Part shown: piece after piece, positions 3,445-14,684 of the stretch | Layout: each line of letters starts with the position of its first letter | Position numbering within the stretch: the first letter of the stretch is position 1 | Origin: Fimicolochytrium jonesii | Lineage: Eukaryota | Assembly: GCF_025526975.1 (NCBI RefSeq) | Contig: NW_026515688.1 | Location: 496,001-559,607 of the forward strand | Length of the DNA: 63,607 nucleotides | Reading direction: 5' to 3' | Made by a program: the position numbers and the translations under genes | The notes under the pieces: model-generated | Database searches by the model: none | Told to the model about the DNA's origin: nothing | The model's input: only the letters and a program-made list of their open reading frames with translations

Positions 3445-4186
3445 GCTCACACTCGTCAGCGGGAAACCGCCCAAATTCCGTTCAACTGTCAACCGTCAGA
3501 CATGCGTTTCTTCAAACGCAAACTCACGGTCCAACAGCCCAGCTATGAAAGTGACAGCCCGCCTTCCTCCCTACCGCTGTGGTATACTCTTCGTCGTCGA
3601 ACGGAATGCTGCAAACGATGTAGAACGTTTGCAGGTGTCAGTCACTCTCTACGCACAGTCGTTGCCGAATCACTTGGTGAATGGGACACCCTGGAGTGGA
3701 AGCAAACGTGGCGGGCCCGCTTCTCATTTGTCGCAGTATGAACACTCAGACGATCACCAACTTCCGACGATACAACCCGGTTGCTTTATCCCGTCCTGTA
3801 AGCCGGCGGATGAACCCGTTGAATGTGCGCCGTGGGGGCAGGAAGATATCGATAGGTCCCACCCACTGGCACCCAGGCTCTCGCAGGGGAACGCGTTCAA
3901 AGTCGACACAGACTGTCAGCAGGGGATCGGCGCTCGAGATTCATCAACAACCGTCAGTGTAACGATGTGTCATCCACAAGGCACAGAATAAACTACTGTT
4001 GAAGGGACATTGATTTATGTAAGGAGGACAAGATCTCATTGGAATCCACTGCGATGAAAGTGTCTAGATACACATTTAATGTCGATCAGACTTATTAAAG
4101 CCTGCGCAACGCTCACGTGATGAAACCCACGTGATGGAACGCTCTCTCGGACGCTCTCTAGGACCCTCTGAACTTCTTGATTCAAT

Positions 4187-4303
4187 TTAGGGTTAGGGTT
4201 AGGGTTAGAGTCCTGGTTCAATTGAGAATACAATGTTTACAAAGTAGGGTTAGGGTTAGGGTTAGGGTTAGGGTTAGGGTTAGGATTAGGGTTAGGGTTA
4301 GGG
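4187..4303 (+). repeat. Interstitial telomeric (TTAGGG)n tracts
   Basis: Three TTAGGG plus TTAGAG (4187-4210), then TAGGG, 5x TTAGGG, TTAGGA and 3x TTAGGG (4245-4303). Each tract is followed by a TTCAATT(G/T)AGAATACA..GTTTACA motif (4217-4241 and 4310-4334). Confidence 0.95.
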
Positions 4304-4594
4304 TCTCTATTCAATTTAGAATACAGCGTTTACAGCATCACAAATCTGCCACATAGTAAGAATCTTGCGGCGGCAAGCTATCGTTTCAGAATAGCTTCAT
4401 TAATCGTTTCATACAAATCAATGTGGCTCATCCGTGGGTGACTCAGCGGTGCCGTATTAAATATGGTGGCCGCAATAGCGCGGGATATGTCGCGCTATTG
4501 CCCAGCCGCCCTTTCCCCCCTACACCCTCTTCGCGCTAACCGCCTTTGCCGTCGGATCCCTCTCCCTCTTCTTTCCTCGACGGACGGCGAGCTC

Positions 4595-7500
4595 TCAACC
4601 ATCACCGCCGACCGCTTTGACCGACGGCTCCCTGCTGCCAGCGCTCCCTGCCACGGCTTCTGCGGTTTTCGACTCTGCCGCGCGGGTGGCTGCACTTGTG
4701 GCCGCCGGTGGTTTCCGTCCACCGGCCACCCAGCTGGCCACATCGCACAGAGGGGCCGCCCAGCCTTCCGTGCCCTGTCAGCAGGGCGGCGGGGGGGGGG
4801 GGGGGTGGGGGTTAGCATTTGCCATCCATCAGCAACAGGCGCGCGCGGTCTTACCCCTTGATCCTTGCCCACGGCCGTAATGTTCGAGGCTTTCCCGTGC
4901 AGAATGGTCCACATGATAGTCCAGCGCGCAACGTGGACCTGACTGGTGGAATACGTGGCCGGGAGCACAAGCGCCCCCTTCGCATTGCGCTCCCCCACCG
5001 TGCCGTGAATGATCCAGCTGGCCATGCAGCACGAGAGAACCCCGCAGGAGTCCATGTCCTGCTGGCGGGGGTGCGACACATAGATGGGGGGGACGTGGGC
5101 CCACCTGCGGGCATAAACCCACAGTGGATCATGTACCGCACCCTGTCCACGATGCGCCAGCGAATGTCCTCGGTCCATACGGCCGCGTTCATTTTCCCCG
5201 ATCGCTTGCCGAACATGGAGTCGTAAAAGTAATGCCGGCCATCCGTCCGGTCATACCAGTACGAGGCGAAATGGTTGCGGTTTCTGTGGAGGATGAAGTG
5301 GGCAACGTCGTGTTCTGCTGGCGACTGTGGAGGGGGGTTGTTAGCGCGGGATGTGCGGCAGTGCCTCGAGAATGTACAGCACTTACCGGGTGAATGTATG
5401 CGGGAGCCAAACACCCCTCACCGATCAGCAGCGCCTCGCCGGCCGTCCACATGCGTTGTAGGGGTTGCCCTGTCTCCCTCCGGGTCACGGCCGCCGACTT
5501 TGCCAGGGTGTCGACGTACGTGTATATCATGGTCAGCGACAGCCAATTGCTTGCGCTCTTCGGCCTGCCGCCCATGTTCCCCACTAGGCCGGCCTTGTCG
5601 GGCGCGCCCATCCACCCCCTCCCCGCCTCCTTCAGGTTTGGGTAGAGGCCAAGCACGGTCGGCGGCAGAGTGAAGGGGCCGACGTCGCCATACTGGGCCA
5701 GGCGTGCGCACTCGTCCATCACAGCCTGTGGCGGCATCCAGAAGCCGGGCATCTCGCCGTGGCCGGTGGCGCGCGCATAGGGCACCACTGAGGCAGGCTT
5801 CGGCGGGCCCTCCCCCCTCTCCACCTCCGCTCATGACTTTGAGACACCCTTTGCATTGAATCCGATGCTTGTCAGCGGCGCCACCTGCCAGTGCTTGCGC
5901 GCCTCAGTGTTATTGAGCAAGTACTCCTCCCCTTTGGCCAGTTTCGGTGCGGCCAGCTTGGGTTTGGGTGCCCGTTGTTTTGCCTCTTGTCTCCCCTGCG
6001 CAGATACCCCGCGTTAGCGCAGCACCGCGGCAACGTCCACTCACCCAACTCATACCGGCTTTGCCGCTTCCTGCATGCGCGTGTAAGTGTCGTCTGCGAC
6101 GCCCCTGTAGCCTTCCCATATGCGGTCCGCCGCCTTCCCCAAAGTTGCCACGTTTTGCCTGATGGCCTTCTTGCACCCTTTCCCGCCATTGGCCTCTGAG
6201 CGCGCGAGCTTTCTGAATAGGTGCATGGTTTCGTCGAGCAGCTTTGAGGCCTCGGGGCCGCCTGTGGCTTCGTACCTCCCCTTGAACCCTCCGTGATAGT
6301 CCGCCATTTGGCGGGCCTGGGTCAGGCGAAGAGATAGCGTGGCCATATCCTCCGCCCAATTCCTATCCCTGTCCGATCCCTCCTCGTCTGACCCCTCCTC
6401 CTCCGATCCCTCCTCCTCCGCGGCTGCAGTGGGCTTGCCCCTCTTCTCGGGGGGCGCTTGCTCCGGCTCCCCCTCCTCTGCGCGCTTGCGCTTCCCAGCC
6501 TCAGCCTCCCCCGGCGCCTTCTCCGCCGCCTTCTCCGCCGTCTTCTCTGCCACCTCCTCCCCCACCCCCTCCGCCGCCTCCATGGCCACCTTCCCCGATG
6601 CCCCCTCGCCGACCCCGCTGACTGGGGAGCCAGAAAGCGCCTCGACCTGAGCAGCCGTGGGCCCTGCCCCTCCCAGCCGTTCTTGGTCACGCCGGCCACA
6701 GATGCCAGCGGGTCCGCGGGCCTTTCTTCCGCGAAAAGGTCGTCGATGCTCACGTCCTCGCGCCGACGTGCTGAATGCAGTCCCAGTACAGCGAGAAGCT
6801 TGCCACTTCCTCCTTGCTTGCCGTCTTGCCAAAGGTGCGGCCATACAGCGAGTACGGTGGCCAGCCCTTGACAAGGAGGGGGTTTGTCAGCGCGCGGATC
6901 TCCGGCCAAGGCGTGCGCCTGATGTCCCTGCCGGATGCCTTGTTGTACTTGTCCCAAAGTGCATCGCGGAGGCCCTCTCTGTTTTTCCAGATGGGCACGA
7001 TGGGCGCCAGGGGTTTCCCTGCACGGGGTGGGCGGAGCCTGAGACAGCTTGGTTACGAGCGCTAGCGCGGCGGGTGACGTTAACGCGGGTCACGCACCTT
7101 CTTTTTCATCCCCGTCTTTTTTAGCCCCGTGTTTTCTCTTCCCCCCGTTTTTCTCCCCCTCAACAAACAGGGAGCCTACGTAGGTGTCCAGAGCACGCCG
7201 GGCTGCGCGGGCGGTGTCGACGGGCTGCCCCATCAGGTCCCCCGCCACGATCCGCACTGTGTCGTCGCTGTCTGTGACCAGGTAGCTGCGGCCTGCGCTC
7301 CGAGAGGATGCAACGATGAGTCGGAGGGGCTCGCCAGCCAGCTTGCAGATCTCGACCAAGCTCTCGGCGGCTGTGATGAGCGCCCCCTCGGCGACGACAA
7401 CGTCCGCGATGGTCGCCGATATGCTCCCCACGTTGTCGCGGAGCGCCCTCCTGTCGTCGGGGTCCAGCTGGTCGACCAACGCCAGCGCGAGGCTACGTTG

Positions 7501-8007
7501 TGCGCTGTGGCCAAGCAAGTTGGCGGTCGCGGGCCTAGCCTCCGCACCGGCAGCCTCCCTCATCCGCCCCATGTCAACGTTGGCTGTTTTCCAAGCTTCC
7601 GCCATGCTCAATGACTTGGACCAATCAGCGGGGTCTCCCGCCCGTAGAAGCTGCAGCATTCGGTTGACCATTCTTGTCTTCTCTTGCTGAAGGATCCGCT
7701 TGGCGGACTTTCCACTGCGCTTCTTGGGCGCGGCGCTCGCCTCCTCCTCCCCAGCCTCCTCCTCAGCGCGCCCCTCCTCCTCAGCGCGCCCCTCCTCCTC
7801 AGCGCGCCCATCCTCCTCCGCGTCGCCCTCCTCCTCCCCGTCGCCCTCCTCCCCCCCTTCCTGCTCGTGCTCGCTCCCCTCGTCGCCGAAGGCAAGTAGC
7901 ACGCTGGTGGCCATGTCCGCCAGCGCCTCCTCGCTCGCGACGTCAGAGTCGGAGCCATCAGCGGCCTTGTCAGCGGCCTCCGCCACCTTTGACCGGCGGG
8001 CCGGCAT
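4595..8007 (-). pseudogene. Long multi-exon gene with C-terminal Ulp1/C48 (SUMO-protease-like) cysteine peptidase domain, disrupted
   Basis: Frame-consistent introns at 7019-7097, 5996-6055, 5325-5386 and 4775-4854. Motifs in order: WLSLTMIYTY (cf. WLNDEIINFY), NHFASYWY..YFYDSM (His, Asp) and PRQQDMDSCGV (Gln, Cys). Disruptions: in-frame TGA at 5831-5833, a 1-nt shift at the G7 run 5086-5092, and further shifts around 6.6-6.8 kb. Confidence 0.7.
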
Positions 8008-8274
8008 CTAGAAAAAGCAGTGGATATGCATGTGTCGTTAGCGCCCGTGCGCGGCAGTGCCATATATATGCCCGCTGCACACGCCACCCCCGTGTGCGCG
8101 GCGGTGCCCGCGGTAGCGCCTCCCCGCCCGCGCTATCGCATCCTTATGGCGAGTCTGTGGTGAGGCTATATATATATGCCAGCTGCACACCCCCATACCT
8201 CGCCGGCCGCTTCCATGTTTGACCGGCTAGGGCCGGGCGCCTTTGCCGCCGCTTGGCTGCGAGTCCCCATCTTT

Positions 8275-8338: not shown

Positions 8339-8663
8339 ATCTCCGTCTTCCAAGAGCCGGCCGCACTTAGCTGCTTACCCAATCCGCTGGAGGTGGCGCA
8401 GTCGCGGCGCAGCTGTGGCTTGCCGGTCACATGTCCACACTGCTGCTGTGATGATCGCCGCATCTCCAAGACCACACTGCCACACGAAACATCAAGCGCT
8501 TGCAGCGGACAACAGCCCCCCGGCCAGCGCCTACCTCCTTCCAGCTCAAGCCCGGCAACTCACACAGAGCACGCTCCGAAAATGCTCAGCGCTGACAAGG
8601 TGAGTGGCCGCTGTGTAGCCGTGGGCGTCTCTGCCGGGTGTTGACCGCCTGGGCTCGCAGCCC

Positions 8664-10348
8664 ATGCTGAGCACGACCGCCGCTTGCGGGAGGTCGAACG
8701 GCATGGGGCGCGCTGTCTGGGCGTGTTTGCCATGCGCCGATCCCGCAGCCCATGTTGAGCACGACCACCGCTTGCGGGAGGTCGACCGGCATGGGGTGCG
8801 CTGTCTGGGCATGCTGCTGTGCGCTGATCTCGAGCATGACCGCCGCTTGCGGGGGGTCGACCGGTATGGGATGCGCTGCCTGGGCATGCTGCTGTGCGCT
8901 GATCTCGAGCACGACCGCCGCTTGTTGGAGGTCAACTGGTATGGGATGCGCTGCCTGGGCATGCTGCTGTGCCGCGTCGGTGATTACGATTGCGCGGGCT
9001 GGGTCGCTAACACCTTCCCCCTCCCCTTCCCCTCCACCGCGCCGCAGGCCACGCCCCCCGTCGCACCCACCACGGTCGAGGCTCTTCTGATGGGCATGGG
9101 CGAGGGCCGCGCCACAGCTACCTTCGGCAACATGGTGGCCTTTTTGTATCCGCTGCTGGTAGACGCCGGCCTTGCCGCCTGGGACGCTAGCCTAGAAGAC
9201 AAGGGCAAGGCCATTGGCCTTTTTTCAAAGAAGATCAAGCAAGACAACCCCACCCTTTGGGGCTGGTGGATCAATAGGCCAACGCGGTCCCGTCACCACA
9301 AGAAGCGCGCCAAGCACCATATTGGGCTCCAGTCCGACATCATCGCCGCGATCACCGATGGCGGTCTTACCGCGGCCGACTTCTTGGTCGACCCCCGGCC
9401 CTCCGCCAGCCGCCCGGCTGTTCACATCGTGGTGCCAACGCCCGCCTCGTGCGATGGCTGGGAGGGCAAGATGGTCTATGCGGGGTTTGGGAAGAGGCCG
9501 GCGAAGGCGAGGGGCCTGGATGGGCTTGAGCAAATTGAACCCCGGGGGGGGGCCGACATCTACATCCGCGACAAGCACGGCGCCCTTGTGGCCACAATCT
9601 TGTACAATAGCGTGGGTCGTCGCGAACATGACCTGCGGCTGGGGCTCATTGTCGAGTCCTGTGGATCCCGGCCGGCTCTGGTTCGATGGAAGGCTTCAAG
9701 GGGCACAATGCACGCCACGGGGCTTCGTCGTGGCGTCAAGCACTCGGGATATGCCAGGGGGACGTCGCACTATTCAATGAAAGGAGGGGCTGACATTTCG
9801 GCAAAGAAGTTTCTCGTTGCCACGGAAAAGGCGTTCACCAAGCGACTGCTGCGGGAGCTCACCAAACGCAACCCCACCGCGGCGGCCTACCTGATGATGT
9901 CCATGCCAGAGGTGTACGGGCCACACTCCGATGAGTTCACCCTGCTGTTCGCCACGCGACCAACTATCAAGTGGTCGTTCACTCCGACCCGTCGGACGAC
10001 GGCGTCGCCAGCGAGCTGAACCCGCACACAGGCCGCGCCATATGGAAGCTGACCCCCAAGGAGGAGCTTCCGGAGGAGCTTCAGGCCCGCAAGCTATGCA
10101 CGCAATGGGTGGCAGGCTACGCCGTCGCTCCGCCAACCATCGTCGGCGAGTGGATATTTGCGCTGCCAGAGCAAGGCTTCTACTTGGTGCTGCAGCCCGA
10201 CTGCATATGGACGTGGATGTCTGACAAGCTCCACGGAACGGCGGAGCTTGACACGTCCGGCGTCAGTGGCCACACGGCTGTTGTGACGCTGCCCCTGGCG
10301 ACGGCTGCGGCCATCCGGAAATACGGCCTCCCAGATGAAGACGAATAG
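8664..10348 (+). pseudogene. TET/JBP-like 2OG-Fe(II) dioxygenase (fungal Tet-like family), one frameshift
   Basis: ORF 8664..10019 has GTMHATGLR (GxMxxxGxR) at ~9702 and FTLLFATR. After a shift at ~9957-9961 the frame reads NYQVVVHSDPSDD (HxD at 9980), WIFALP, and WMSDKLHGT (distal His at 10232). The true start may be ATG 9090. Confidence 0.65.
8665..8970 (+). repeat. Tandem ~75-bp repeat (4 copies)
   Basis: Units GAGCA(C/T)GACC(G/A)CCGCTTG.. start at 8669, 8757, 8832 and 8907 (periods 88, 75, 75). Confidence 0.9.
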
Positions 10349-10380
10349 CTGCGCCGCCCCCAGCAGCAGCGGCCCCTCGT

Positions 10381-10455
10381 GCGTAGATTTTGTAGACCGT
10401 GCCTGCGTAGATTTTGTAGACCTTGCCTGCCCTGCCTGCGTAGATTTTGTAGACC
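10381..10455 (+). repeat. Three copies of GCGTAGATTTTGTAGACC
   Basis: Identical 18-mers at 10381, 10405 and 10438, just after the TET-like stop codon. Confidence 0.9.
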
Positions 10456-10676
10456 TTGCCTGTGCAGAAAGGCTCCATCAATAGGCGAGTTTGGCGCGCA
10501 AGAGTCCGATGTGGCGAGGGGCTCGCTCCAGTAGCGCGGGCAAACGTGATGGACCGGACCTCGCGGTGAAGCTTTGGCGGCTGGAGGCCTGAGCTGCCCG
10601 TCCAGACCTCGCCCAGGGTATCTCCGTCCTGCGGGCGCCGCGATGACACGCACACACGTTAGCGCTGGACTCGTGA

Positions 10677-10799
10677 CGTTAGCGCGGGGTGGGTGCTAAC
10701 GCCTGTAAAGCCACGTTAGCGCGGGGTGGGTGCTAACGCCTGTGAAGCCACGTTAGCGCGGGGTGGGTGCTAACGCCTGTGAAGCCACGTTAGCGCGGG
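10677..10799 (+). repeat. 37-bp tandem repeat (3.3 copies), each unit a hairpin
   Basis: CGTTAGCGCGGGGTGGGTGCTAACGCCTGT(A/G)AAGCCA at 10677, 10714 and 10751, partial at 10788. CGTTAGC/GCTAACG is an inverted repeat within each unit. Confidence 0.95.
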
Positions 10800-10856: not shown

Positions 10857-13800
10857 ATGGTCGTGAGCAGACAATTCCAGACCGCCGAGACCGAGCTCAT
10901 TCTTACAATTGCGCGCAATTGCGCACACTTCCACCCTCGCACAGTCAAGGCAAACCCCCAGCCAGTCTCTGAAAGCCTTCAGCGCTTCGCAGGTAAGCGG
11001 GAGTCCTGGATCCTCCTCGAGAGCAGGCCCCTTGCTCAGCCCCCTTGATCTCATCACCTGCCTGCACAGCACGGCACAGCACGGCCATCATGTCATCACA
11101 CCAGGCGCTCCAGGGGCACCGGTGGGGTGGCTTCATTATGGGAGCAACCACACCACGGCGGAAGAGGAGGAAGGTTGCTCCGGTTACCCCGCGGCTGCCC
11201 ATAAATCCGCCAACCGCTGTGCAGACACCAATGCAACCCCTGCAATTCAATTTCCCACCTTCTGTCCAGCGCCACTTGCCCCAAGCAATTGCAGACATGG
11301 TTGGCGAGAGCTCCGGCGATGAAGACGGGCAACAGCACCAGCAGCAGCGAGGGCTTTCACCCGTGAACAGGGGTCTGCAGTGCCCACCGAACCTCCCCGC
11401 GCCCATCCCTTTCCGTTTTCCCAGCACACCGGGTGGGTCCCTGGTGCTTGAACCCCCGCCACCACCACCAGTTCAACGACCCCGCCCGCAAACACATGCC
11501 GGCACCAAGGTTTCCCTTCACCAAGTCATCCATAATCAGAATCAAGCTCAAAGGGAGCGCCTGACAACGTTCATCGGCAATGTTCACGTCCTTGCGCGCC
11601 ACACCACCTTCTTTCTCAAGTACTACCTTGGTGAGTTTTTGAGGCACACTGTATATTTCCCATAATATTTCCCATAACAATGTCCTGACTACTACGTCTG
11701 CCCACCGCAGCTGATCATCCTCTACGCGATTTCCCGGACATCACCAACAAGCACATCAGTGTGATGTTTGAGCTGCTCAACAATCCAGGCTACAACGGCA
11801 ATCCAGTCATCGCGCAAGAGGTGCGTCCACGGGTTCAAGAGTACTGTGATGTTCACGGATTCGCCCCCATCCGCATGCGATATTGCCAACAGACCGCAGC
11901 GTACACGGCTATGAGCATCTTCACAAACCTCAAAGTTAACGTACAAGAGCATTTCATGCAAATGTTTCTGCGCTACGTCAATGAAAGGCTTGGTTTGAAG
12001 CAAGTGGAGCGGCATCTCCGGAGAGCGCAGCAGCGACACTATTATCGTTGTGTCCGTCAATGTACAAAGTACGCGACGTTTGAAGAGTACCCAACCGAAG
12101 AGGAGCTTGCCCGCCTCACACGACTTGAGCGGACCATCCTCGACTAGTTATGGGCTCTGTTTCCTCCCCAGGATGAGCCGCTTGCGTACAGCCTTGCGGT
12201 GGACGCAATGCCATATTTAGGTGAGCTATGTCCCGTACATTTACCCCCCCCCCCCCCCCCCGCGGCTTCCTCTTTTGTCTAATCATGGTCCACACCTGCC
12301 TCGCCTCATCACAGGTGCCTATTGTGAGCTCTCACGCCTCTATGAGCGCTGTGGAACGCGGCTGTTTTCCGCTATCCCGCTGCGCAAATCTCGAATCCAG
12401 TCATCTGTTCGGATTGACACGCGGATCCTAGCCATTCATATCCTGGGTTTGAGCCAACGTCGCATGGGGAAATTCACCGATGAACGGAAGCGGGAGCTGT
12501 GGGGGCAGTTTCTCAACGTGAATGTAAGTCTCTATCCCTCTGCGCTTATTTCACTCACCTCACCTCGCCGAATGACGGATTGCAGGACAAGGTCTTCAAG
12601 GCTCGAACGAAGCTTGGTCTCAAATTTGATGGGTCAATCAGCACAAACGGGTATTCCGCTACCATCCACTTCAAGAAGCCAGGGCTCAAGTATGGGCATC
12701 GGGCCCGGAAGCGCAGCAAGGCCCAAATGCGGGAAGAAGTCAAGCAGCTGTATTTTGAGCACCACATCGCTGAACTACGGGAGGCTCTAAACATCGTCAG
12801 CATTGATCCGGGCAAGCGTGACCTCTTGTTCTGTTGAGACATCAAGAAGGAGCGGCCATTTAGGTACCTTTCAGTTGATTACTACTGCCTCGCTGTCCCC
12901 GCTGTCCCTCCCCGCTGTCGCCGCTGTCGCCGCTGTCCCCGCTGTCCCCGCTGTCCCCGCCGTCGCTGCTGTCGCTTCTGTTGGTTACGCCATCAATTTT
13001 ATGCTATCAACTTCCGCCATCGCTGATCTCAACGCTTCCTGTGCTGAGCACGACCGCCGCTTGCGGGAGGTCGACCGGCATGGGATGTGTTGTCGCTTCG
13101 CCATCGTAGTCGTGAAGAGCGAATCGCGAGCCCGGCTCCTACTCCAAGCTGGACTCAAGCGATCGCGGAAGTTGGCGGAACGTTCAATGAGATCAGAATG
13201 TGGACGATGCATGGCGACTGCGACTGCGACGGCGACTGAATTCGATCTGCAGTACCTCCGCTATCCCCGCTGTCTCCGCTGTCCCCGCTGTTCCTCCCGG
13301 CTGTTGCCGCTATCCCCGCTGTTGCCGCTGTCCCCGCTGTTGCCGCTGTCCCTGCTGTCGCCGCTATCCCGATCAACGCCCTCCTCAACCCTGTCCCAGT
13401 CCCCATCCCCACCATCCCCCCCCGTCACCATCCCCACCATCCCCTTTGTTCGACATTCCGTTGCCGCGTTCTCACAATGCACCACCCCATACCAGATACA
13501 CATCCAATCAACGGGCAGTCGAGACAAAGTCTCGGTACTTTTGAAGAGACATGACAGAGCGAAAGATCAATGCCGGCATCGCTGAGATGGAATCACATAT
13601 TCCGTCGCACAAGAGCATGAACATCAAGGCGTTCTCAGCGTTCATTGTGGATCACGTACATGCGGGTATGATGTATCATGCATTGTCTTCAAATTTGGTA
13701 ACACGTGGGCTGACATCCATCCATATCCCAGATCCCGCCCTGGATGAGTTTTACCAGGATGAGATTCACGTAGCTCGCAGATTCAAGGCGTTCTCACTGC

Positions 13801-14362
13801 GGCAAAAGTCTGAGAGCAAGCTCATCAAGAACATGCGACACCTGTATGGAAAGCATTTTTCGGTCATCATGGGTGATTGGAGCGACGCTGGAAAAACCAT
13901 GCGCTTTCAGGAGTCATCAAAGACCGAGGGGTGAGTGACCATCATTGTTTTTTATGTATTTTAATATGCTAACTCATCATCATGGAAATCAGATTCCGCA
14001 CACTCTTTGCAAGAAACAGCATTCCATGCTACTTGCTAGATGAGTATCGAACGTCTTCCGTGTGCCCAGACTGCCACGGGCGTGTGAAGAAAAACATCCG
14101 ATGCCGGCTGTCACCTCGGCCGTGGCAAGCTCGAAAGGGAAGAATGGAATTCGTCCATGGATTGGTGGGTTGCCCCAACCCCGAATGTATCAACCAAGAC
14201 TGGATGCCATTTGAGATTCCTGGAAGAAGACAACCACTACGACTACGGATGAAAGTGCACAATCGGGACGTCCTAAGCACCAAGAATTTCCTCTCGATTG
14301 TGCGCTCGGTGGTGTTTGGCATTGATGGCCGCAGACCAGACGCATTCTCCCGTAACCGGTAG
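10857..14362 (+). pseudogene. Fanzor1 (eukaryotic TnpB/IscB-OMEGA-type RuvC RNA-guided endonuclease), intron-rich, 3 premature stops
   Basis: Frame-consistent GT-AG introns: (10993-11069), 11631-11710, 12221-12314, 12524-12585, 12864-13495, 13666-13731, 13931-13992. Exons from ATG 11090 sum to 2277 nt (759 codons). Motifs: FDGSISTNGYS, RuvC-I IVSIDPG, FRYTSNQR, VIMGDWS, LDEYRTSSVCPDC, GCPNPEC, RuvC-III HNRDVLSTKN. Stops at 12145, 12835 and 13542. Confidence 0.9.
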
Positions 14363-14383
14363 TCTAGATTTCACCCCATCCCA

Positions 14384-14450
14384 TTTTCCGTGGTGGTTAT
14401 CTGCCATCCACATCATTGTACCTCTGCCTGAGGCGTCGCCGATGATGGCA
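14384..14450 (+). ncRNA. Candidate Fanzor omegaRNA scaffold
   Basis: Lies ~20 nt after the Fanzor stop. Can fold into GTGGTGG/CCATCCAC and ATCATTG/CGATGAT stems, the latter enclosing CCTC/GAGG. Position matches known Fanzor omegaRNA loci. Not proven. Confidence 0.35.
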
Positions 14451-14684
14451 ACTTGTAAATCTACTATGAGAGAGTTCGTGCACAAGCATTGGTGAGGTGA
14501 TTGCGGTGGGGCGTGTTCGGGCGGGTACATGCGTTTGGATACTCCAGCCAAATACGCCATAGGCTATTGAGCTGTCAAGAGGTGGTGGACCTGTGCAGGG
14601 CAATGGTGGGTAGTCGCATCTGCAGTATGGCCGTATATGAGAAGACCGTGGGAATGAAGGAGTTGTTGAAAGTGACGCCGATCC

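Follow-up and report, generated by a model that had tools for sequence, protein, structure and literature searches.

The window analyzed here, a stretch of 63,607 nt from the chytrid Fimicolochytrium jonesii, contains a broken gene of the TET/JBP dioxygenase type that lies directly upstream of an inactivated Fanzor1 gene. On balance, we favor the reading that this gene belongs to a Fanzor transposon, and that its intact form served to erase silencing methyl marks of the host. Transposon-borne TET genes are known from rusts, mushrooms and truffles, where they are found with DDE transposases or Helitrons; here, the host is a chytrid and the partner is Fanzor1, so that a predicted DNA demethylase would travel in one mobile unit with a nuclease guided by RNA. 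The TET-bearing Fanzor1 element family of this chytrid, which extends the known transposon TET cargo, is what gives the finding its value.

The TET/JBP-like gene and its lesions

Two overlapping plus-strand reading frames, 8619-10019 and 9935-10348, are the two halves of one protein (Table 1). The translation of the first frame contains GTMHATGLRRG, and that of the second contains NYQVVVHSDPSDD, FALP, WTWMSDKLHGT and SGHTAVV, with HSDPSDD as the HxD region. The motifs GxMxxxGxR, F.LP and W...HGT, from which an earlier reading of the letters alone (the sequence-only reading) had recognized a TET/JBP-like dioxygenase, are all present in the window. The same reading had proposed that the gene is split by a 2-nt indel, and the alignment of the paralog P0009, which follows frame 3 until 9956 and frame 2 from 9959, places such a lesion just ahead of the HxD strand. 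The repair suggested at that time, which gave FATRNY, had to be corrected: all nine aligned paralogs have Thr at that column and read FATTNY, and when 14 different two-base deletions were compared, this sequence resulted only from those at 9955-9958. Therefore, the lesion arose by duplication of a CG, and none of the nine aligned paralogs has this duplication.

The start of the gene had to be moved as well. Position 8664, previously taken as the start, is an ATG within a 75-nt repeat (family D4) that is present in four copies inside the likely intron 1, and the likely start is the ATG at 8582. MLSADK/E is also the N-terminus of the public models P0024, P0009, P0004 and P0011, and the splice signals make intron 1 likely. 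A fifth copy of the 75-nt repeat lies at 13041, inside a Fanzor intron. Several paralog models take the intronic repeat as coding. Another repeat, TGCGTAGATTTTGTAGACC, is present in three full copies at 10372-10468, just 3' of the TET stop.

The Arg of the G-x-R motif is encoded in the 5' part of exon 2 (9726-9728), and the 3' part encodes His (9980) and Asp (9986) of HxD, the Asp at His+5 (9995), the distal His (10232) and a Gly at 10268-10270. In the window, the HxD...H triad is encoded out of frame; among the eight paralogs, His is lost in two. Conservation of these residues in homologs, on which the sequence-only reading had staked its assignment, was found in the distant rows: of the 34 non-Fimicolochytrium rows of the alignment, many of them closely related to each other, 33 have residues at the HxD positions, and these are His and Asp in all 33; the distal His is present in 31 of 31. 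The Gly results from a CGC-to-GGC change and replaces the Arg that binds 2-oxoglutarate (2OG), 12-13 residues past the distal His. This Arg is present in seven of the eight paralogs that reach the position (SRHTAVV; Cys in one) and in 27 of 28 distant homologs. The absence of the Arg, noted earlier from the sequence, is real for the window copy and does not extend to the family. The altered chemistry that had been considered on this ground is not supported, as the Gly is unique among eight paralogs and 28 homologs. According to the study of CcTet, replacement of the equivalent Arg (R385A) abolishes activity (PMC11040006).

Because the Arg-to-Gly change is private to the window copy and comes on top of the frameshift, this copy is interpreted as a pseudogene, not as an enzyme with new chemistry. 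It carries two independent, predictably inactivating changes, and in all likelihood it is dead. Furthermore, at 43 of its 432 codons the copy departs from the majority of the paralogs, and CpG transitions can account for 15 of these differences. In the adjoining Fanzor, the reading frame is interrupted by stops at 12145 (Glu in 15 of 19 paralogs) and at 12835 (Arg in 18 of 21 paralogs; CGA to TGA). Together with the frame change near 5105 in a protease-like gene further to the left, these stops indicate that the whole element copy is decaying.

Membership in the TET/JBP family

A search with the first half of the protein returned eight proteins, all from F. jonesii, seven of which are 81-86% identical to the 5' part of exon 2. 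Cluster look-up and profile search extended this set to at least 12 models of the TET-like gene on 12 F. jonesii contigs that differ in length, with P0024 as the model of the window locus; only in P0003, P0009 and P0010 is the model uninterrupted and each of the five key residues retained. When 1.84 billion representatives were searched with HMMER, 11 matches at E <=0.001 were obtained, including proteins of Powellomyces hirtus (P0012, which exists in three copies of 607 aa, and P0013) and Geranomyces michiganensis (P0015) as well as unnamed environmental proteins. P0012, P0020 and P0021 of P. hirtus share the length of 607 aa, fall into one 90% cluster and have intact catalytic residues, which makes them a candidate for a recently active TET-bearing element. 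A scan with three environmental proteins revealed 26 AT-rich, fungal-looking loci (L001-L026; 20-30% GC), which encode a family with a complete HxD...H...R set and scores under the Pfam cut-offs; an origin from arbuscular mycorrhizal fungi is a guess from base composition. At L001, a Myb/SANT gene lies 2 kb upstream; genes of this type are found in Harbinger-like transposons. No related loci were found in the metagenome contigs scanned with the chytrid alignment, nor in the prokaryote genomes or viral contigs scanned with the AT-rich homologs.

A profile built from the AT-rich metagenome homologs alone, with no chytrid rows, matched the window at 9935-10345 (E 3.1e-11); 1313 sequences were searched, and the window gave no other match to this profile. 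When all non-Fimicolochytrium rows were combined in one profile, both halves were matched (E 7.7e-30 and 1.2e-19), with the next window match at E 0.72. Against the Pfam families PF20515 (2OG-FeII_Oxy_6, Tet-like) and PF12851 (Tet_JBP), all 13 dioxygenase frames from the metagenome loci gave matches to one or the other at E <=0.1, the best at 1.2e-4, all under the curated cut-off.

The structural comparison proposed with the sequence-only reading was carried out on models of two paralogs, and the best matches belonged to the TET/JBP class, not to unrelated folds. The AlphaFold2 model of the intact paralog P0003, made from a 44-row alignment (mean predicted local distance difference test, pLDDT, 75.3), has helices at residues 26-129 and a TET-like core from about residue 130. 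In Foldseek, it matched CcTet at E 8.3e-8, and the best 25 ranks held only chains of CcTet, TET2, CMD1 and NgTet1. VIA-align gave Z 18.5 for TET2 (root-mean-square deviation 3.9, 256 aligned), 17.1 for CMD1, 15.3 for NgTet1 and 13.8 for CcTet, followed by AlkB as the next family at Z 12.0. The weaker model of P0005 (pLDDT 54.6) also had CcTet as its best Foldseek match (E 8e-5), and among 48,161 chains TET2 and CcTet came out on top with Z 10.5 and 9.7, near AlkB at 9.1. In the ESM Atlas, no usable match was found for residues 150-449 of P0003. Taken together, the fold searches and the conservation of HxD and distal His back the original assignment, and membership of the gene in the TET/JBP family is hardly in doubt.

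Linkage to Fanzor1

As the sequence-only reading had stated, a Fanzor gene lies downstream: it starts at 11090, 742 nt past the TET stop. Its paralog P0055 matches the Fanzor1 of Spizellomyces punctatus (SpuFz1, 8gkh) at E 4.6e-149, and the window translation contains the motifs DPG, DEY, CxxC and RD (RuvC Asp, Glu, C4 zinc finger, RD). P0055 and P0056 look near full length and have the RuvC motifs. Downstream of the gene is a candidate omega-RNA region, of which 14393-14428 is common to another copy, as the last residues of P0046 read into it; its single-sequence fold was no better than that of shuffles (z 0.02). SpuFz1 is described as having a 75-nt scaffold at the equivalent place (PMC10432273).

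A search with one Fanzor exon identified 20 proteins, 19 of them from F. jonesii. Accessions were looked up for nine of the 20, mostly picked because the length of their contig agreed with that of a TET copy, which yielded 21 Fanzor accessions. Eleven TET copies remain besides that of the window, and in four of them the accession number directly below that of the TET gene belongs to a Fanzor (8819506/05, 8823095/94, 8826122/21 and 8815601/00). Given the Fanzors seen on those contigs, about 0.13 adjacencies are expected by chance (P ~2e-6, assuming one gene per 3 kb). The five TET-adjacent Fanzors, including that of the window, are distributed over three or more places in a tree of 22 rows, from which 10 of 31 rows had been dropped (<40% coverage, partly from a 70% identity filter on tblastn stretches) and in which several nodes have low support. 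This spread fits a cargo ancestral to the family that is frequently lost at the 5' side. Copies of the Fanzor number in the dozens, at 82-96% identity. Eleven F. jonesii Fanzor models, including P0037, form one 90% cluster, and none of them adjoins a known TET copy. From these data, we regard it as highly probable that the TET-like gene and Fanzor1 were mobilized together.

CpG decay and the proposed role of the enzyme

Among the TET paralogs, CpG transitions were found at 43 of 119 possible non-synonymous sites (36%) versus 14 of 291 (5%) for other C/G transitions (Fisher p 4e-15). For the Fanzors, the corresponding values were 54 of 178 versus 40 of 453 (p 1e-10), these counts being thinned by the 70% identity filter. 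The test used only window codons equal to the paralog majority, and each derived residue was counted once per column; as synonymous changes are invisible to it and the copies are related, the p-values are only indicative. Deamination of 5-methylcytosine (5mC) at CpG leaves CpG transitions, and the CpG-biased decay of the copies therefore implies host 5mC at the CpG sites of these elements. In Spizellomyces, a member of the same order, 5mC is reported to be confined to transposons (PMC12695648). The CpG observed/expected ratio of 0.87-0.97 over the element is mildly lower than the range elsewhere in the window (0.71-1.18) and is no evidence on its own.

From these observations, the following mechanism can be proposed. 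The window holds an element copy in which the TET-type gene was broken by the CG duplication and the Arg-to-Gly change and the adjoining Fanzor by two stops. By prediction and search, the intact paralogs have the TET/JBP fold with HxD...H...R, and accession order indirectly suggests the TET-Fanzor pair at four other loci. Judging from the mutation spectrum, the host would methylate the elements at CpG. As is known for the family, the intact enzyme would use Fe(II) and 2OG to oxidize 5mC to 5-hydroxymethylcytosine and further products. With silencing loosened in this way, Fanzor could be expressed along with its guide RNA. Since the stretch between 4.2 and 14.5 kb yielded no transposase, the element would be moved in trans or through Fanzor-assisted copying. 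A sequence-level reason for carrying a TET gene would lie in the CpG bias with which both genes decay, and we consider an anti-silencing role of the intact enzyme via 5mC probable.

Alternative explanations

Several observations weigh against this proposal. Concerning the family, no Pfam TET model was matched by the window halves or by any Fimicolochytrium copy, and sequence searches of the PDB with halves, paralogs or profiles found no TET chain; the best match in one of the Pfam and PDB searches was an unrelated 2OG oxygenase (E 0.62). Concerning the function, the elements are CpG-mutated, so any protection by the enzyme did not last. Moreover, no selection on conserved columns was detected in the four uninterrupted copies (10 of 172 versus 59 of 768 changed, p 0.52), so all the observed copies may be decaying. 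Concerning the linkage, the pairing was read from accession order, not from DNA, and does not cover orientation and distance. In seven of the 11 other TET copies, there is no adjacent Fanzor among the 21 accessions seen (five have none on the contig, and in two it lies at a distance of 15 and 56 accessions). The element ends and the two left-hand genes were read from one copy only. Concerning the base pocket, the position Arg+6, which is the stacking aromatic F391/Y1902 in known TETs, is Thr in 24 and Ser in four of the 28 distant rows, and Thr in six and Lys in one of seven paralogs. His+5 is Arg in most AT-rich homologs. These two positions, which were mapped to the TETs by motif spacing and not by residue-level superposition, indicate a pocket that differs from that of the studied TETs.

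The substrate of the intact enzyme is one that we infer, and the pocket also bears on a variant of the proposal: the same dead copy and the same transposon, with an intact enzyme whose target base or product is a different one (thymine to 5-hydroxymethyluracil, demethylation of N6-methyladenine, 6mA, or a CMD1-like adduct), for example to mark or protect element DNA. In addition to Thr/Ser at Arg+6 throughout the family, such a specificity would fit the Pro/Thr in place of His/Arg at Arg+8, an insertion of about 40 aa after HxDxxD in the chytrid copies (poorly predicted, with pLDDT <50 at residues 333-367 of the P0003 model) and CMD1 as the second-best fold match. However, in all eight paralogs His+5, again mapped by motif spacing, is Asp, the residue that, according to PMC11040006, binds N4 of 5mC and blocks 6mA in TET2, NgTet1 and CMD1. 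This disfavors 6mA as the substrate. The 2OG-binding Arg is kept, the element contains no glycosyltransferase or other partner enzyme, and, to judge from the CpG decay, the mark on the elements would be 5mC. Another base or product is a minor possibility, unlikely but not negligible. With the different pocket in mind, the family, including the AT-rich fungal-looking metagenome sequences that escape the Pfam cut-offs, may yield TET enzymes with new specificity.

It is improbable that the TET gene comes from an element of its own, or from a duplicated segment, and lies beside Fanzor in some copies only. The Fanzor models do outnumber the TET models (31 proteins versus 12), most of the other TET copies had no adjacent Fanzor in the sample, and neither a terminal inverted repeat (TIR) nor a target site duplication (TSD) links 4.2 kb to 14.5 kb. 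Nevertheless, four exact adjacencies on different contigs, the spread of TET-adjacent Fanzors over the tree and the 75-nt repeat common to a TET intron and a Fanzor intron speak against it. The excess of Fanzors would be explained by 5' truncation, as in the Fanzor1 elements CRe-1/2/3, for which 5'-truncated copies with intact 3' ends are described (PMC3627910).

We give little credence to a more far-reaching version of the cargo reading, in which a transposase-free cassette would join RNA-guided cutting with its own eraser, and the TET-like enzyme, with its non-standard base pocket (Thr at the place of the stacking aromatic), its 40-aa insert and its additional helical region, would act specifically on element DNA or on the DNA targeted by Fanzor, perhaps recruited by the Fanzor-guide complex. 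If true, the cassette would be a natural RNA-directed DNA demethylation system.

Two further alternatives concern the window copy itself, and both are very improbable. One is that the public model of this locus, P0024 (8582-10348), is correct: its predicted 65-nt intron, 9947-10011, bridges the frameshift and deletes the HxD strand, so that the product would be a non-catalytic DNA-binding protein without HxD. The GT...AG ends required for this intron exist and reproduce the P0024 junction. However, its donor, GTTCGCC, does not resemble GT(A/G)AG, the donor type of six other element introns, its last 30 nt contain no branch motif, and the stretch is coding and conserved in paralogs, so that splicing would remove a strand of the core fold. 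The donor in particular leads us to regard the intron as a gene-finder patch. As public annotation masks the frameshift with an unlikely intron and calls the intronic repeat coding, the TET-like family has in part remained nameless. The other takes the indel for an error of the assembly, or for a programmed frameshift, and the window copy for an active enzyme that needs no 2OG-binding Arg. In favor of it, the intact HxD, distal His and G-x-R Arg could be cited; against it stand the dinucleotide duplication and the Gly, both private to this copy, and the accumulated decay of all three genes described above.

Relation to known systems

TET/JBP-bearing DNA transposons of fungi were reportedly described by Iyer et al. 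in 2014. More recently, TET cargo was found in 11 transposon lineages of three groups of Dikarya (Kojima 2025, PMC12730594), with TET/JBP genes of the types PU, AG and PE in KDZ, hAT, Harbinger, IS3EU, EnSpm, ESTA, Plavaka and Helitron elements. In that study, the transposon TETs are proposed, without experimental validation, to remove silencing marks. The F. jonesii family resembles the Dikarya elements in having a multi-copy TET/JBP cargo, upstream of the main enzyme and in the same orientation as in some Dikarya families, and in the anti-silencing role proposed for it. It differs in the host (Chytridiomycota), in the partner (a Fanzor1 nuclease), in that no transposase was found, and from the PE type (HxE) in its HxD. 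The words 'chytrid', 'Fanzor' and 'Spizellomyces' have 0 occurrences in the main text of Kojima 2025.

With CcTet of Coprinopsis cinerea (7vpn, 7w5p, 8jkk), TET2, NgTet1 and CMD1, the family shares the fold (Z 13.6-18.5), the HxD...H triad and the Arg past the distal His, and the Asp at His+5 corresponds to D234 of NgTet1 and D350 of CMD1. Unlike these enzymes, to which it is 9-15% identical, it has Thr at Arg+6, the insert of about 40 aa and an extra N-terminal helical region; it also lacks Gly331 of CcTet, which permits 6mA. The Fanzor1 is a close homolog of that of the Spu-1 element of S. punctatus (Saito et al., 2023, PMC10432273). With Spu-1 and other Fanzor1 elements (Bao and Jurka, 2013, PMC3627910), it has the copy number in the dozens in common; those elements have no transposase inside, and none was found in the window element. 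Spu-1 is described with 30-nt inverted repeats, none of which were found in the window element; upstream of the window Fanzor1, additional genes extend over about 7 kb, along with TTAGGG tracts. Related Mariners are reported to carry a methyltransferase as cargo (Bao and Jurka, 2013, PMC3627910). In the main texts of the Fanzor papers that were term-searched, 'TET' or 'dioxygenase' cargo is not mentioned, and literature searches, which cover article texts, found no paper on a Fanzor-TET pairing. With P0003, P0009 and P0010 as enzymes and S. punctatus, with its transposon-confined 5mC, as a setting, the anti-silencing idea for transposon TETs is now testable.

Extent of the element and neighboring genes

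Two minus-strand genes to the left of the TET-like gene likely belong to the same element, as judged from the sequence (Table 1). For the divergent gene with acidic repeats, no Pfam family was matched at E 0.01. The product of the multi-exon region matched neither Pfam nor PDB, and in the Atlas its best match was 0.86 to unnamed clusters, with weak UCH leads at 0.81 and 0.75; by the order of its motifs, it may be a Ulp1/C48-like cysteine protease. The two genes lie in a block of high GC content (0.63-0.67 over 5-11 kb versus about 0.48-0.62 elsewhere) that ends near the TTAGGG tracts. No transposase or Helitron RepHel gene was found in 16 frames scanned and the frames of the element between 4.2 and 14.5 kb, where exons are short and decayed.

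Table 1. Features of the element copy in the window
Feature	Position	Strand	Remarks
Candidate left end: (TTAGGG)n tracts alternating with a twice-repeated unit of ~31 nt (repeat D1)	4175..4334	+	
Multi-exon region, decayed gene at 4852-5830	4852..7089	-	His...Asp...Gln-x5-Cys order, frame change near 5105
Divergent gene, acidic repeats	7093..8272	-	305-aa open frame
Likely exon 1 (MLSADK), TET/JBP-like gene	8582..8599	+	ATG, then GTGAGT donor at 8600
Likely intron 1, 448 nt	8600..9047	+	GTGAGTG donor, branch-like CTAAC at -41, CCGCAG acceptor
Exon 2, 5' part	9048..9954	+	Helical N-terminal region, then first half of TET/JBP domain
Duplicated CG (2-nt frame-shifting insertion)	9955..9958	+	tblastn frame switch 9956/9959; deletion trials
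Exon 2, 3' part, out of frame	9959..10348	+	Stop 10346-10348
Fanzor1 gene with introns, inactivated	11090..14362	+	Paralog P0055 tiles six stretches at 76-93%
Candidate omega-RNA/right-end region, boundary not fixed	14363..14465	+	Last residues of P0046 read into 14393-14428

The telomere-type tracts of the candidate left end (4187-4204, 4250-4279 and 4286-4303) are the only ones in the window. Their G-rich strand points into the element, as it would if a telomere had been added to the left flank and not to the element. This could mean that telomerase healed a cut target or that the element was inserted into a telomere-like tract. Some 140 nt inward from the candidate left end, two 11-bp arms that match perfectly in inverted orientation enclose an 8-nt loop (4472-4501) and could form a terminal hairpin. 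The search for a TIR or TSD between the candidate ends of this one copy gave no inverted match >11 nt and no direct match >8 nt. The spacer between the TET-like gene and Fanzor1 contains a 37-nt tandem repeat (10673-10799), the core of which, GTTAGCGCGGG, recurs at 5340-5366 and 7074-7089, near splice sites of the minus-strand genes.

To the right of the element, the long frames scanned between 15340 and 57104 are mostly ordinary host genes. They include genes for a RasGEF, a histidine phosphatase, a DEAD-box helicase, an ERCC4-like protein and a CCCH zinc finger protein, as well as two glycosyltransferases, BRO1/ALIX, Vps35, a JmjC/cupin protein and a class C GPCR-like protein.

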